This document shows positions 6,315-10,868 of a DNA stretch of 64,000 nucleotides, in pieces. The position numbers and the translations under genes are program-made. Under the pieces are notes generated by a model, which was not told the origin of the DNA, did no database searches, and was given only the letters and a program-made list of their open reading frames with translations. Origin of the DNA: Bacteroidota bacterium (GTDB lineage: Bacteria > Bacteroidota > Bacteroidia > Bacteroidales > JAAUTT01); assembly GCA_030706405.1 (NCBI GenBank), contig JAUZOO010000002.1, positions 385,167 to 449,166 of the forward strand, given 5' to 3'. The first letter of the stretch is position 1; every line of letters starts with the position of its first letter.

Positions 6315-7586
6315 TCAGTTAAAACTCCTTGATAAAGCAATAGCAGCAATAGTACCATCGGCAACTGCGGTGGTAATTTGCTGGTATTTTTTGCTGATTA
6401 CATCACCAACAGCGCAAACCCCATCTATATTGGTTTTCATATCTTCGTCGGTGCTTATGTAACCCCATTTATCGAGTTGCAAGACATCTGCAAACAAATC
6501 AATATTAGGCATCATACCTACGAATACAAAAATCCCATCTGAGTCTAACTGATGTAACTGTCTGGTTTTTAAATCTTCGTAAGTTATAAGCATTTTATTT
6601 CCAACTTTTTCAAACTTTCGGGGTTCGCTTTCCAAAATGAGCTCAATCTTTGGGTTATTAAGCAGTTTCTCCTGAGCTTCTTTATTGGCTGTAAGTCTGT
6701 CAAACTGATGAATAAGCGTAATTTTTGATGCAAATTTGGAAATAAATTCAGATTCTTCAACAGCTGTGTTTCCACCACCAATAACAATAACTTCCTTATC
6801 CTGAAAATATTTAGCGTCACATATTGAACAATAGGAAATTCCTTTGCCTTTGAATTCCTTTTCTCCGGGAATGCCAAGGGGGCGGGGAGAAGCTCCTGTT
6901 GAAATTACAATGCGTTTAGTTTTTATAGTTTCAAATTCATCTATAACAATCTCTTTATCAAATAAATTTACAGATGTTACATCCACTGCTACTTTAAACG
7001 AAACTCCGGCTTTTTTTGCTTGTTCTGACATGTAATGCGACAGCATATATCCGTTAACAGGTTCGACAAAACCCGGATAATTTGATATTTGGTGCGTAAC
7101 CGAAACCTGTCCGCCAGGAAGTTGAGGGTCAATCAAAACCGTTGACAATTTGGCCTGAGCAAGATATATTGAGGCGGTTAATCCTCCGGGGCCTCCGCCT
7201 AAAACGGCCACATCATACTCGTTAACTGTCGGTTTTATACTCTCCTTTATCTTTTTTACGCGTTCTTGGGGCAATAAAGAATCAAGATTTTTTATCAAAT
7301 CTTTTCGTTTGATGCCTCCTGTTAATATTTCTCCCACACGTTGTCCCTTTTGGAAAAACAGAACGGTCGGAGAGCTGGATACACCAAGACTTGTGGCTAA
7401 TTCCCGGTTTTCCTGACGGAATATTTTAATAAATTTAATATCATTGCCATAAAGTTGTCCGAGCGATTCAAATTTAGGAGCTAAAGCCTCGCATGGCGGA
7501 CATTCTGTTGAGTAAAAATCGAGGGCTACCAAATCGCTGTTTAATACTTGCTGTTCGAACTCCGAAGCTTTAATTTCTTTCATCAT
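6315..7586 (-). CDS. Thioredoxin-domain / thioredoxin-reductase-like flavoprotein fusion
   Basis: 423 aa. N-terminal Trx fold with CPPC. C-terminal FAD/NAD(P) oxidoreductase with GGGPGGLTA, redox-active CSIC, and GGGNTAVEE. Last gene of the ArsR-headed operon. Confidence 0.8.
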   Translation of the reverse strand: MMKEIKASEFEQQVLNSDLVALDFYSTECPPCEALAPKFESLGQLYGNDIKFIKIFRQENRELATSLGVSSSPTVLFFQKGQRVGEILTGGIKRKDLIKNLDSLLPQERVKKIKESIKPTVNEYDVAVLGGGPGGLTASIYLAQAKLSTVLIDPQLPGGQVSVTHQISNYPGFVEPVNGYMLSHYMSEQAKKAGVSFKVAVDVTSVNLFDKEIVIDEFETIKTKRIVISTGASPRPLGIPGEKEFKGKGISYCSICDAKYFQDKEVIVIGGGNTAVEESEFISKFASKITLIHQFDRLTANKEAQEKLLNNPKIELILESEPRKFEKVGNKMLITYEDLKTRQLHQLDSDGIFVFVGMMPNIDLFADVLQLDKWGYISTDEDMKTNIDGVCAVGDVISKKYQQITTAVADGTIAAIALSRSFN

Positions 7587-7686: not shown

Positions 7687-8991
7687 CTATAAATTTTGAT
7701 AAAGGCTAATTCCCAGTCTCATCAAATCTTTAGCCGGACGACAATCGGGAGCTTGAACATATCCATGTTGATTTTTTGCTACCGAACCGCATCCTCCGCC
7801 GCAAGCCAACTGCAAAGAACAATTGGCGCACTCTTTGATCGATAGAACATCACGTTCTTCCCAGTCGCAAACCTTTTTGTTATCCATTGAAATTGAAGGA
7901 TAATACGTACCTAAACGTTCTTCACTTTTACCAACTGTAGCCGTACATGGATAGATTGCACCCGTATAGTCAAAGGCCCATTCGGTTTTACATGCCGGAC
8001 ATGCATCAAACAAAGGATCGGGCAATTCCCCGTGTTCAAATAAAAACTTTGAAATGGAAAATGCTGGCTTATGAAAATCAAGTATTTCAGGATATTTTTT
8101 AATTAAACCATATAAATCCTTATATAATTCAAGGCGGGAGTAAAGCTTCATGTTTGCTTTCTGACAATGATGAAGCTCGTAATTGCGGCCAAGTTGCGTT
8201 TTAAAATAAGCCGATGATGTCCAGCCCTTATCTCGTGCGTATCGAGCTAAACCGGGCAGATTTTCAATATTTTCACGATCAATTACCATTCGAAGATTTA
8301 CCGGAATATGATTAGCTAATAAAGCATCAACTCCGTCGGAAATCTGTTGAAACGTGGCAGACTTATCTCGAAGAAACCGACGTTTATTATGAACTTCAGC
8401 CGTTCCATCGAGGGTAACCTGTACTTCACGAATTTGTCCTAACTTTAATATATCTATGTAATTCAATGTATTATAACCGTTTGTTACCAGTGCGATATCA
8501 ATTTTTCGCAAAGTGGCCTCCGAAATCAGATAACGGATGATTTCCTTGTGAAGACCTCCTGTAAGTAAAGGTTCACCTCCAAAAATCGTAATGTACTTGC
8601 GTTTATCAGCTAGTTTTTCACCTAAATAGATAAAAAAAGCATCGATTATATCGGTTGTTATTTGCGAAGGAGGGGATTGATACTCGTCCTGATAACAATA
8701 ACTGCAGGCAAAATTACAGGAATACCAAGGTACAAAGAACACTTGAACTTCGTCACTTTCACGATTATCTATAAAATCGAGGTATTTTTTAGTATATATA
8801 TGTTTTTCATGTTCATAATCAGACAAATATCCTTTTTCAATTAATTCATCTGTATCGGTAAAGTTCCCCGATTGAAATTCTTCATACTTTCTTTGGCCAA
8901 TAATATCGGCATTACCACTTAATAAGTTGACAATGAAGTAATCTTCCGAATCATTTAGCCCGGAGATAATGTTATGTTTGGATGGAAGCAT
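7687..8991 (-). CDS. Radical SAM enzyme with a C-terminal SPASM domain (peptide-maturase type) and an ~85-aa N-terminal extension
   Basis: 434 aa. CNFACSYC is the CX3CX2C motif at residues 92-99. The C-terminus has CKTEWAFDYTGAIYPC (CX9GX4C) and CANCSLQLACGGGC (CX2CX5CX3C), the exact SPASM signature. Confidence 0.9.
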   Translation of the reverse strand: MLPSKHNIISGLNDSEDYFIVNLLSGNADIIGQRKYEEFQSGNFTDTDELIEKGYLSDYEHEKHIYTKKYLDFIDNRESDEVQVFFVPWYSCNFACSYCYQDEYQSPPSQITTDIIDAFFIYLGEKLADKRKYITIFGGEPLLTGGLHKEIIRYLISEATLRKIDIALVTNGYNTLNYIDILKLGQIREVQVTLDGTAEVHNKRRFLRDKSATFQQISDGVDALLANHIPVNLRMVIDRENIENLPGLARYARDKGWTSSAYFKTQLGRNYELHHCQKANMKLYSRLELYKDLYGLIKKYPEILDFHKPAFSISKFLFEHGELPDPLFDACPACKTEWAFDYTGAIYPCTATVGKSEERLGTYYPSISMDNKKVCDWEERDVLSIKECANCSLQLACGGGCGSVAKNQHGYVQAPDCRPAKDLMRLGISLYQNL

Positions 8992-9055
8992 AGGTGAGAT
9001 TTTTGATTAACCGCAGAGCCCGATATAACCCGGGAACTCCGCAGTTAAAATGAAT

Positions 9056-9154
9056 TTAATCGTGGCAGCCGACAACGTTTTTCGAAATTTTTGCACAACA
9101 TTGCGCTTGCCTGTTCTCCGTTTTTTGATCTTTTTTCTTGATTAAAGATTTCAT
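9056..9154 (-). CDS. Unannotated 32-aa Cys-containing peptide (MKSLIKKKDQKTENRQAQCCAKISKNVVGCHD); candidate precursor or substrate of the adjacent radical SAM/SPASM enzyme
   Basis: ATG at 9154 and TAA at 9056-9058 on the minus strand. It sits 64 nt upstream of the rSAM start and 48 nt downstream of the thioredoxin stop, on the same strand, behind an AT-rich initiation region. Lys-rich N-half and a CC-X11-C-H C-half. Below the 60-aa ORF-track threshold. Confidence 0.5.
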   Translation of the reverse strand: MKSLIKKKDQKTENRQAQCCAKISKNVVGCHD

Positions 9155-9202: not shown

Positions 9203-9673
9203 CTATTTTACTTTCAACAGTTCTTTAATTGCTTTGTCCATTTCTTCTTTGCTTAAAACCCCGGTTGTCATTTGAGGCTTATCTGTGCTGGGGCAAAACA
9301 AAACGGCTGGAATGCTGGAAATACCAAAGTTTGAGGCCAATTCCTGCTGCTCATCAACATTTACTTTATAAACATCAATTTTCCCGTTGTATTCTTTGGC
9401 CACTTGTTCAATTGTAGGAGCAAGCATCCGGCAGGGACCACACCAATCTGCATAAAAGTCTATAATACAAGGCTTATTGCCTTCAAATTTCCATTGTTTA
9501 TTCTTATCGTAATTAAAAACTTTTTGCTTAAAAGTAGCTGCAGTAAGGTGTTCAATTCCTTTAGTTGCAACCGTCTTTGTTTCAACCTGCTTTTTATCCG
9601 CTGATTTGTTCTGGCAACTTGCCATTGGAGCAAGTAATGTTAAAGTCAGCGCTATAATTCCAATTGATTTCAT
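9203..9673 (-). CDS. Exported thioredoxin-family lipoprotein
   Basis: 156 aa with a signal peptide and lipobox (LLAPMASC), then a Trx fold with WCGPC. Confidence 0.85.
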   Translation of the reverse strand: MKSIGIIALTLTLLAPMASCQNKSADKKQVETKTVATKGIEHLTAATFKQKVFNYDKNKQWKFEGNKPCIIDFYADWCGPCRMLAPTIEQVAKEYNGKIDVYKVNVDEQQELASNFGISSIPAVLFCPSTDKPQMTTGVLSKEEMDKAIKELLKVK

Positions 9674-9706: not shown

Positions 9707-10354
9707 TTAGGAACAACTACATTTGGTTCTGGGCCTGATGCCAAGAATTGTGAAACTGGCTACTTCAATTTTCCCCTTTGCATAGGGCTGACTTTCCTCC
9801 ACAATGGAGATCAGTGCGAGGCCAGTATCTTCAATAGTTTGTAGGTATTCACGCTTGGTTACAGCACCAGCCCAACATTCCGCGACTGCTACAGGGTCAT
9901 TTCGGTACTCTTCAGGAACAGGTTTTAATGAATAAATATCACTAATAACAAAGCGTCCGCCAGGCTTTAATATCCTGTAAATTTCCCGCCAAACGGCGTC
10001 TTTGTCTGATGCATGATTAATGGTGCAGTTAGAAATGATAAGGTCGGCAGTTTTTGAGGGTAAGTTTATATTTTCGAGGTCAGATTTTACAAATTCCACA
10101 TTTCGAACATTTAATTTTTCTTTGTTACGATTAGCCTTTTCAATCATTCCATCAGACACATCAATGCCATAAACGAAGCCATTTTCGCCAACGTCTTCAG
10201 CCAAACGCAAGACATCAGTTCCGCGACCACTACCTAAATCAACACATACCTCACCAGGTTGCGGTTTGGAATGATTTATAGCTCCTCCACACGACAAGCA
10301 GCAGGTACCTTCGGCTAAATCACTGTATCTTTTATTTATTTCCAACAAACTCAT
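9707..10354 (-). CDS. arsM: SAM-dependent methyltransferase, arsenite methyltransferase (ArsM)-like, short form
   Basis: 215 aa. Motif I is VDLGSGRGTD. The ArsM-type conserved Cys positions are present: CCLSCGG, SNCTINH and ECWAGA. There is an additional C-terminal KCSCS. Confidence 0.7.
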   Translation of the reverse strand: MSLLEINKRYSDLAEGTCCLSCGGAINHSKPQPGEVCVDLGSGRGTDVLRLAEDVGENGFVYGIDVSDGMIEKANRNKEKLNVRNVEFVKSDLENINLPSKTADLIISNCTINHASDKDAVWREIYRILKPGGRFVISDIYSLKPVPEEYRNDPVAVAECWAGAVTKREYLQTIEDTGLALISIVEESQPYAKGKIEVASFTILGIRPRTKCSCS

Positions 10355-10356
10355 AA

Positions 10357-10569
10357 TTATTTGGTTTTTTGTGTTTTATCGTAATTAATTTCACAAGATG
10401 AGCCTCCACATGCACTGCATCCTGTATTGGTAATAGCCTGTATAACAAAAAACAACCCTAAAAAGGATAGAGCCCCAAAATGCTCACTTATAGCAGCATA
10501 CATCATCATTATTCCTGCTACTAATTTAATAATCCTTATAATATCCCAGTTCGCTAAAAATTTTTTCAT
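10357..10569 (-). CDS. Small two-TM membrane protein with a Cys-rich tail (YgaP/DUF2892-like)
   Basis: 70 aa with two hydrophobic helices and the tail TGCSACGGSSCEINY. Tightly packed between arsR (11-nt gap) and the arsM-like gene (2-nt gap). Confidence 0.55.
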   Translation of the reverse strand: MKKFLANWDIIRIIKLVAGIMMMYAAISEHFGALSFLGLFFVIQAITNTGCSACGGSSCEINYDKTQKTK

Positions 10570-10580
10570 CAGTAATTCAT

Positions 10581-10868
10581 TTACATATTACAGTTACAAT
10601 TTGTTACACAATCGATTATTTGAAGCAGCTTAAGCTCTTTTAGAGAATAATAAACTTGGTTTCCTGATTTAGTTGCAGTCAGTAACCCCTTTATTTTCAT
10701 ATTTATAAGATGATGAGAAATAATGGATTGCTCTGCATTTAGCAACCGGCAAACATCATTTACGGGCAATTGTCCGTGCTTGTGAAGCACATCAATAATT
10801 GCCAATCGTGTAGGATGGGCTATTGTTTTAAGTATAAACGCTGCTTTTTCTAATGTTTCTGCCTGCAT
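10581..10868 (-). CDS. arsR: ArsR/SmtB family metalloregulatory repressor
   Basis: 95 aa winged-helix protein (FILKTIAHPTRLAIIDVL, ISHHLINMKIKGLL) with a C-terminal Cys triad CVTNCNC. Confidence 0.85.
   Translation of the reverse strand: MQAETLEKAAFILKTIAHPTRLAIIDVLHKHGQLPVNDVCRLLNAEQSIISHHLINMKIKGLLTATKSGNQVYYSLKELKLLQIIDCVTNCNCNM

Follow-up and report, generated by a model that had tools for sequence, protein, structure and literature searches.

A stretch of 64,000 nucleotides (nt) of DNA from a Bacteroidota bacterium (assembly GCA_030706405.1, contig JAUZOO010000002.1), hereafter the window, carries on its minus strand the gene of a radical S-adenosylmethionine (SAM) enzyme of the SPASM type, and directly upstream of it an open reading frame (ORF) for a peptide of 32 amino acids. 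The ORF begins with the ATG at 9154 and ends with the TAA at 9056-9058, and it is housed in a gap of 211 nt bounded by the stop of a thioredoxin gene (9203) and the start of the radical SAM gene (8991); the thioredoxin gene, the peptide ORF and the radical SAM gene are all in the same orientation. In a preliminary description of the stretch, the peptide was compared with the precursors of ribosomally synthesised and post-translationally modified peptides (RiPPs), and both the coordinates and the translation given there were exactly reproduced in our analysis. The features at the locus are listed here with the evidence for each, where the RiPP recognition element is abbreviated as RRE.

9056..9154, minus strand: precursor-like peptide gene, 32 amino acids plus stop, MKSLIKKKDQKTENRQAQCCAKISKNVVGCHD (ORF list, frame conservation, Shine-Dalgarno sites elsewhere)
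9107..9154, minus strand: leader-like half, residues 1-16, the MKSLIKKK motif followed by a Lys-rich linker (family alignments)
9059..9106, minus strand: core-like half, residues 17-32, AQCCAKISKNVVGCHD (per-codon table, divergent members)
7687..8991, minus strand: radical SAM/SPASM enzyme with an N-terminal RRE-like domain, the presumed maturase (NCBIfam, CteB similarity, structure model)
9007..9048, minus strand: RNA hairpin of 42 nt between the peptide stop and the radical SAM start, without a U-tract in the window (folding)

Conservation of the peptide gene

The mere existence of the peptide ORF is no more than chance expectation, because ORFs of at least 25 amino acids occur at about 98 per 10 kb of this AT-rich window, that is, about one per 100 nt over the six frames. 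In fact the gap contains two further ORFs of at least 25 amino acids, a 29-amino-acid ORF with a GTG start (9007-9096, minus strand) and a 31-amino-acid antisense ORF (9050-9145, plus strand), both of which overlap the peptide ORF, and the earlier statement that the peptide ORF is the only one in the gap has to be given up. The case for a gene therefore rests on conservation. The orthologous loci were sampled with one genome per GTDB species; from 494 relatives of the radical SAM protein the best 80 were kept, with an identity of 56-72% to the protein of the window, and they come from Bacteroidota, Ignavibacteria, Spirochaetes, Elusimicrobia, a Syntrophomonadaceae metagenome-assembled genome (MAG) and a Leptospirales MAG. 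By a six-frame motif search, a peptide ORF upstream of the radical SAM gene and on the same strand was found in 73 loci, which makes 73 of the 76 with enough upstream DNA, and four loci (L001, L059, L062 and L064) are uninformative as the sequence ends too near the radical SAM start. The co-orientation and the precursor-like place directly 5' of the maturase, which had been pointed out for the window, thus recur in nearly all of the orthologous loci, and the peptide-bearing loci span Bacteroidota, Ignavibacteria, Spirochaetes, Elusimicrobia and Firmicutes (at least five phyla). Among the 80 loci, the peptide gene was not found within 4 kb of the radical SAM gene in L021, L025, L051 and L065, and no TGA (selenocysteine) replacing the Cys codons was found in the loci without the peptide.

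The pattern of substitutions in these loci is that of a coding sequence. The 16 C-terminal codons are present as 73 distinct DNA sequences in the 73 copies, the one of the window included, while 11 of the 16 core residues are invariant (Ala1, Gln2, Cys3, Cys4, Ala5, Lys6, Ser8, Gly13, Cys14, His15 and Asp16) and all synonymous codons are used at these invariant residues. The mean entropy of the first, second and third codon positions in the core is 0.165, 0.334 and 1.333, respectively; pairwise codon differences amount to 18937 synonymous against 6407 non-synonymous ones; and a stop codon directly follows the Asp in all of the 73 loci. Moreover, a Shine-Dalgarno sequence of the AAGGAG or GGAGG type lies a few nt 5' of the M(K/R)SL start in 13 of the 14 non-Bacteroidota loci, three of the loci with such a sequence having GTG starts. 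The distance from the peptide stop to the radical SAM start is typically 5-430 nt, and in about nine loci it is only 5-14 nt. The preliminary description had proposed to check whether the frame and the CC..GC(H) core are conserved and whether substitutions are biased to synonymous sites; this is strongly borne out, and as far as can be read from the DNA alone, the peptide ORF is a translated and strongly constrained small gene. The peptide core is better conserved than either of the flanking enzymes. For example in the divergent locus L087, where the radical SAM enzyme is 31% and the methyltransferase of the cassette 43% identical to those of the window, the core is still VAQCCGKQSKIVAGCHN.

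Between the peptide stop and the radical SAM start, the hairpin of the window has a folding energy of -23.8 kcal/mol (z = -4.4), which was not reached by any of 200 shuffles. Of 60 related spacers, 40 likewise have a z value below -2 against shuffles; these hairpins usually lie directly 3' of the stop codon and are often followed by a U-run, their sequences are unrelated, and the loci with the 5-14 nt spacer have no hairpin. In the window, the hairpin was not called by a terminator scan for want of a U-tract, and a sigma-70 scan detected no minus-strand promoter before the peptide ORF, a result without weight, as the model does not cover the promoters of Bacteroidota. As a leaky terminator or a stabiliser, such a hairpin after the stop codon would probably raise the ratio of peptide to enzyme transcript; a high precursor-to-enzyme ratio is common for RiPP precursors.

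Two other readings of the ORF have to be weighed against these data. It could have arisen by chance in the AT-rich spacer between the genes, as ORFs of similar length are so common in the window and two of them overlap it in the same gap; however, selection at the amino-acid level, conservation in 73 loci and the Shine-Dalgarno sites rule this out, so that its probability is negligible and we regard it as practically certain that the peptide ORF is a real gene. It could also be a regulatory upstream ORF, namely a leader peptide whose Cys codons govern the read-through of the hairpin into the radical SAM gene by attenuation, and in fact about two thirds of the loci combine a small ORF that has Cys codons with a strong downstream hairpin, which in many cases has a U-run behind it. 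Against this, the non-Cys residues Ala, Gln, Lys, Ser, Gly, His and Asp are also invariant while their codons vary freely, the hairpin begins 3' of the stop codon and has no overlap with the ORF, and the hairpins are neither conserved in sequence nor present in the loci with the shortest spacers. The attenuator reading is accordingly rejected on the substitution pattern, which speaks for selection on amino acids, and we consider it highly improbable.

With the gene established, the family to which the peptide belongs can be described from alignments and divergent members. Its layout consists of an N-terminal M-K-S-L-(I/T/V)-K-K motif, a variable linker that is Lys-rich or otherwise unconstrained with a length of about 8 to >40 residues, and the core AQCCAKxSxxVxGCHD followed by the stop, which has its place at the C-terminus throughout the family. 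Rare variants of the core end in GCHN or GCRD or start with AQCCGK or ALCCAK. The division into a leader-like and a core-like half, as suggested for the single peptide of the window, is thus reproduced by the family alignments, with the conserved MKSL(I/T) N-terminus, the variable linker and the fixed C-terminal core; this organisation fits a precursor, though atypically with the core rather than the leader being most conserved. In the divergent precursors P0345, P0353, P0396, P0399, P0402 and P0404, an extra Cys-Cys (or CCC) is seen in the leader or linker.

Although the family is widespread, it has hardly been noticed by annotation. Searches with an alignment headed by a 42-amino-acid homologue gave 1192 clusters at 90% identity among 5.8 billion proteins (profile search, E-value <=10), and 132 out of 1.84 billion representatives at 50% identity were retrieved at E-value <=0.001 by an exhaustive search with a hidden Markov model. 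In the databases the copies bear either no name or the label 'hypothetical protein', and they are without Pfam domains; no match to the peptide was found in Pfam and NCBIfam, even at E-value <=10 on 32 members. Three NCBI assemblies contain the gene without calling it (L083 8846-8944, L084 2487-2606 and L085 8832-8927), and one uncalled copy belongs to the cultured isolate Carboxylicivirga caseinilyticus (GCA_025499705.1). By exact look-up, neither the radical SAM protein nor the peptide of the window has a database record, and the context of both is drawn from homologues. Full-text literature searches, including one with the literal core string, found no paper on the peptide or the cassette. 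The term unannotated in the preliminary description is thus largely appropriate, and its failure to place the peptide in a named precursor family also stands, as neither SCIFF nor any other precursor model of NCBIfam or Pfam matches and the adjacent enzyme comes nowhere near the cut-off of any curated maturase.

The enzymes of the cassette

In the radical SAM enzyme, the cysteines of the CxxxCxxC motif (C92, C96 and C99) and seven SPASM cysteines (C331, C349, C388, C391, C397, C401 and C417) are invariant among 34 homologues. Its best matches in NCBIfam are CefB (NF038107) with 127.7 bits, PapB (NF047865) with 121.4 bits, TIGR04463 with 109.8 bits and the SCIFF maturase (TIGR03974) with 68.6 bits, while the nearest solved structure by sequence is CteB (5WGG). 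In an AlphaFold model with a mean pLDDT (predicted local distance difference test) of 81.8, residues 1-77 form three strands and then three helices with a pLDDT of about 90, and the topology of this part is predicted to be RRE-like. A Foldseek search with the model again places CteB at the top over the full length (E = 5e-17), followed by anSME, SuiB, ChlB, TigE and SkfB. According to the model, the enzyme has the build of a thioether-forming peptide maturase that depends on a leader, and it lies outside the named families.

Across the 80 loci, the cassette has the order ArsM-like methyltransferase, peptide, radical SAM/SPASM enzyme and a fusion of thioredoxin with thioredoxin reductase. The methyltransferase is present in 68 of them, and the fusion, located downstream of the radical SAM gene, in 78. 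The same order was also recovered when the sampling began from the peptide instead of the enzyme. In the window the two outer members are the following.

9707..10354, minus strand: compact ArsM-like SAM methyltransferase, 215 amino acids, with an N-terminal CCxxC and a C-terminal CxC tail (PRK11873, CmArsM alignment)
6315..7586, minus strand: thioredoxin-thioredoxin reductase fusion, at the downstream end of the cassette (profile matches)

The methyltransferase scores 192.6 bits with PRK11873, the arsenite methyltransferase model of NCBIfam, under the cut-off of 263, because positions 1-59 and 235-272 of the profile remain unmatched. It aligns to residues 70-249 of CmArsM (4KW7/4FS8), and its Cys22, Cys110 and Cys160 fall on C72, C174 and C224, the As(III)-binding cysteines of CmArsM, all three being invariant in 65 of 65 sequences. 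The N-terminal Cys-Cys is kept in 63 of the 65, and a Cys-rich C-terminal (CxC) tail in about 80% of the homologues, reading CSCS in the window and CCCC or CGCSCGC elsewhere. In the methyltransferase of the window, the CC-x2-C occupies residues 18-22. As for the fusion protein, it carries an N-terminal thioredoxin domain (CPPC) and shows 57-77% identity over the sampled phyla, being conserved about as well as the radical SAM enzyme.

The peptide and the methyltransferase tend to be kept or lost together. In the 65 loci with at least 1500 nt of upstream sequence, and with an intact methyltransferase defined as an ORF covering at least 80% of the enzyme of the window, both genes are found in 60, neither in four, and the peptide with a methyltransferase ORF of 73% coverage in one. 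The loci L021, L025, L051 and L065 retain the radical SAM gene and the gene of the thioredoxin-thioredoxin reductase fusion, and they have neither the peptide nor an intact methyltransferase within 4 kb; in L051 a decayed remnant of the methyltransferase is visible (CCLSFDQ..., DLRSGRE).

The probable role of the peptide

Judged from gene order and conservation, we rate the cassette as a putative radical SAM/SPASM-modified ribosomal peptide system with an unprecedented set of partners and a cofactor-like conservation. The reading that we favour, with moderate confidence, is that the peptide is a RiPP-type precursor with a fixed core, which is probably cross-linked by the radical SAM enzyme and has an intracellular task in the chemistry of metalloids or thiols. 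The parts of this reading are not equally secure. That the peptide is the substrate of the adjacent downstream radical SAM enzyme is likely; that the modification is a thioether has about an even chance; and that the peptide works together with the methyltransferase on metalloids or thiols is tentative, falling somewhat short of even. In such a pathway, the MKSL(I/T)KK leader motif would be bound by the RRE-like N-terminal domain of the enzyme, which would then modify the core, most probably by one or more Cys-derived thioether cross-links by analogy with CteB, PapB and CefB. Speculatively, such links could involve the C-terminal Cys-x-Asp, or run from the Cys-Cys pair into the K-x-S-K-x-V stretch, or both. 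The product would stay in the cell and work with the methyltransferase and the thioredoxin system, where it might bind As(III) or another thiophilic metalloid and present it for methylation, or else serve as a dedicated thiol partner in organisms without glutathione. To our knowledge the sampled phyla lack glutathione, and a role as metalloid or thiol partner is attractive because of this and because the methyltransferase keeps the Cys triad of ArsM.

Among the known systems, the nearest in architecture is SCIFF with its maturase, CteA-CteB (TIGR03973/TIGR03974; PDB 5WGG and 5WHY), where a short Cys peptide likewise stands beside an RRE-bearing radical SAM/SPASM enzyme, where CteB is the best match of our enzyme in both sequence and fold among solved structures, and where the family is widely distributed and highly conserved, which is unusual for a RiPP. 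However, the peptide of the window has three cysteines and lacks the six-Cys pattern of SCIFF, as had been stated before; it gives no match to TIGR03973 (cut-off 50 bits) at E-value <=10 while a control SCIFF sequence scores 89.8 bits; the score of the enzyme against TIGR03974 compares with a cut-off of 425; and the context here is one of an ArsM-like methyltransferase and a thioredoxin-thioredoxin reductase fusion. A kinship with SCIFF by way of a KTSxTV motif was also considered and rejected, since in Smith-Waterman alignment against shuffles the family consensus reached p ~0.27 and the peptide of the window showed no similarity. The Bacteroidales target peptides of the GG type do not match either: the family alignment contains no GG motif, in agreement with the missing leader-cleavage motif noted for the single peptide, and there is no NCBIfam match.

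Other maturases resemble the enzyme to a lesser or different extent. CefB is the top-scoring curated model, residues 4-428 of the enzyme aligning to positions 4-427 of 444, but the cut-off is 600 bits, and in CefA a Cys is placed at every fifth residue whereas the core of the window has the pattern CC-x9-C. PapB, the maturase of freyrasin, is among the best matches, with positions 12-330 of the 330 in the profile covered, yet under a cut-off of 340 bits. The formation of thioethers from Cys to Asp or Glu is well established for PapB and QhpD, and as the core of the window ends in Cys-His-Asp, a Cys-Asp thioether as in PapB or QhpD/QhpC would be chemically plausible by analogy; on the other hand, the PapB substrate has repeated C-x3-D whereas the core has a single C-x-D, and the quinohemoprotein context of QhpD/QhpC is absent here. 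In logic only, the cassette is similar to mycofactocin (MftA/MftC) and pyrroloquinoline quinone (PQQ; PqqA/PqqE), which have a very short precursor with an invariant motif at or near the C-terminus, a core conserved across phyla, modification by an RRE-dependent radical SAM/SPASM enzyme, and a product that works within the cell alongside redox enzymes. Their cores are not related in sequence to that of the window, MftB/D/E/F and PqqB/C/D are not present at the cassette, and the MftC model gives 51 bits for the enzyme against a cut-off of 265. Finally, the As(III) site of ArsD formed by Cys12, Cys13 and Cys18 is established knowledge, and by analogy with ArsD, with the ArsR proteins also named in the preliminary description, and with As(GS)3 and other thiol-bound As(III) that ArsM takes as substrate, the vicinal Cys pair and the third Cys of the peptide might form an As(III) site, with a link through the co-inheritance with an ArsM-like enzyme that retains the As-binding Cys triad. 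However, ArsD has about 120 amino acids and a thioredoxin fold, while the peptides here have 31-60 amino acids and CC-x9-C spacing; the Pfam model of ArsD does not match the peptide, and unlike in ArsD systems no arsA or acr3 gene is found near the cassette.

The favoured reading has to be weighed against two other functions. The peptide might be an unmodified Cys-rich carrier, either an As(III) or metalloid chaperone or a thiol partner for the ArsM-like enzyme, with the radical SAM enzyme having another function. This would agree with the joint loss of peptide and methyltransferase while the radical SAM and reductase genes persist, with the three invariant Cys plus His and Asp as a plausible set of ligands for a soft metal, with the lack of a conserved protease or exporter, and with the As-binding triad kept by the methyltransferase. 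Nevertheless the peptide gene adjoins the radical SAM gene, not the methyltransferase, wherever a thioredoxin or another gene intervenes; the enzyme has an N-terminal domain of the peptide-recognition type and a CteB-like build; and the leader-core layout of N-terminal motif, variable linker and fixed core is not needed by a metal site of 16 residues, so that we consider an unmodified carrier rather improbable. A secreted bioactive RiPP is also conceivable, that is, an antimicrobial or signalling ranthipeptide or sactipeptide, with the methyltransferase tailoring the peptide by methylation instead of taking part in metalloid chemistry. For this speak the combination of a precursor with a radical SAM/SPASM enzyme, which is the architecture of ranthipeptides and sactipeptides, the frequency of methyltransferases in RiPP clusters, an OPT peptide transporter coupled to the cassette in one lineage, and an exported lipoprotein-type thioredoxin beside the peptide in Bacteroidota. 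But the core is near-invariant over five phyla, beyond the enzymes, while diversification is usual in the cores of antimicrobial RiPPs; conserved genes for a leader protease, an ABC exporter or immunity are missing; and the three As(III)-binding cysteines of ArsM, kept in every methyltransferase compared, would be needless for the methylation of a peptide. An intracellular thiol peptide similar to a cofactor or carrier is thus likelier than an antibiotic, because the core is invariant and always C-terminal and no protease or exporter is conserved, and the secreted RiPP appears to us less probable still than the unmodified carrier.

Several observations weigh against the precursor reading itself and should be considered together. 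All NCBIfam scores of the enzyme are far under the cut-offs (340-600 bits), and as it lies below every curated maturase family, its reaction is not transferable by homology. The core positions 7 and 9-12, which are the candidate acceptor positions, vary. In the loci without the peptide, the enzyme may act on something else, or the genome may carry the peptide gene at another site. The co-loss of peptide and methyltransferase is significant by Fisher's exact test with p = 7e-6, a value uncorrected for phylogeny. No family of leader proteases or ABC exporters recurs in the 80 loci, which is unusual for RiPPs. As for arsenic, neither acr3 nor arsC recurs in the sampled loci or is found near the cassette, and the ArsR regulator of the window is not conserved, being detected by BLAST in 3 loci with MarR, Crp or DUF134 elsewhere; because of this, the link to arsenic comes from the methyltransferase only, and a specificity for arsenic is not claimed.

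A peptide with more than 1,000 sequence clusters in at least five phyla of anaerobes has been missed by annotation pipelines or left as 'hypothetical', and its probable maturase is outside all curated maturase families. A core more conserved than the enzymes is typical of the cofactors PQQ and mycofactocin, not of antibiotics, and the product may be a new cofactor or carrier; moreover, the co-inheritance with an ArsM-type methyltransferase and a thioredoxin system would tie RiPP chemistry to metalloid or thiol metabolism. A stronger form is possible, though we think it unlikely, in which the cassette peptide is an obligatory thiol partner, tailored by the radical SAM enzyme, of the compact ArsM of the anaerobe type. 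To the same doubtful degree, the peptide would in this case carry As(III), Sb, Se or Te or serve as a cofactor for them, or else be a scaffold for building an organo-metalloid. The methylation of arsenic by anaerobes is an environmentally important process whose requirements in vivo are unclear. Were the peptide such an obligatory partner, it would be the first RiPP to take part in the methylation of metalloids, and it could explain why, for many anaerobes that carry arsM, studies of arsM alone show no methylation of arsenic. For experiments, cultured carriers exist in Carboxylicivirga caseinilyticus, a possible host, and in Pleomorphochaeta sp. DL1XJH-081.

Neighbouring and accessory genes

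Besides the cassette genes, the window has three further genes in the same operon.

9203..9673, minus strand: thioredoxin with a lipoprotein-type signal peptide (…LLAPMASC…) (profile matches)
10357..10569, minus strand: small membrane protein, 70 amino acids, weakly YgaP-TM-like, with the Cys-rich tail TGCSACGGSSC (ORF list, Pfam)
10581..10868, minus strand: ArsR/SmtB-family regulator at the head of the operon, C-terminal CVTNCNC (profile match)

A thioredoxin inserted between the methyltransferase and the peptide is found in 28 Bacteroidota loci, the window included, and nearly all of the 28 have a signal peptide with a lipobox Cys, that of the window being MKSIGIIALTLTLLAPMASC... The inserted thioredoxin is thus predicted to be an exported protein within an otherwise cytoplasmic-looking cassette, which hints at a periplasmic step in Bacteroidota. 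The small membrane protein is replaced in other loci by DUF6132 proteins (CxSGxC motifs) or by YgaP-like/DUF2892 proteins, and these membrane proteins may form a thiol relay in the membrane. The regulator ends in DCVTNCNCNM, a cluster of three Cys that resembles the As(III) sensor site of some ArsR proteins.

Across the sampled loci, the following accessory families recur.

DUF6132: 33 loci
DUF302: 24 loci
DUF1847, at times fused to rhodanese: about 19 loci
YgaP-like transmembrane proteins: 11-18 loci

Further recurrent neighbours are 4Fe-4S proteins, an SQR-like flavoprotein and TauE. In one lineage (P0296), the gene for the thioredoxin-thioredoxin reductase fusion overlaps at its end with the gene of an oligopeptide transporter of the OPT family, with a rhodanese nearby, and this is the only transporter observed to be tightly coupled to the cassette; the peptide of this lineage has an Ala/Pro-rich leader, suggesting a GC-rich genome. 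In an Ignavibacteriaceae and a Leptospirales genome, genes for a TehB-type (tellurite) methyltransferase and a chromate transporter flank the cassette (L084 145-756, L084 5807-7030 and L085 3897-5150), and in L081 and L085 a second, unrelated methyltransferase gene does so. The genes for TehB, the chromate transporter and the second methyltransferase suggest a broader oxyanion and metalloid stress island around the cassette.

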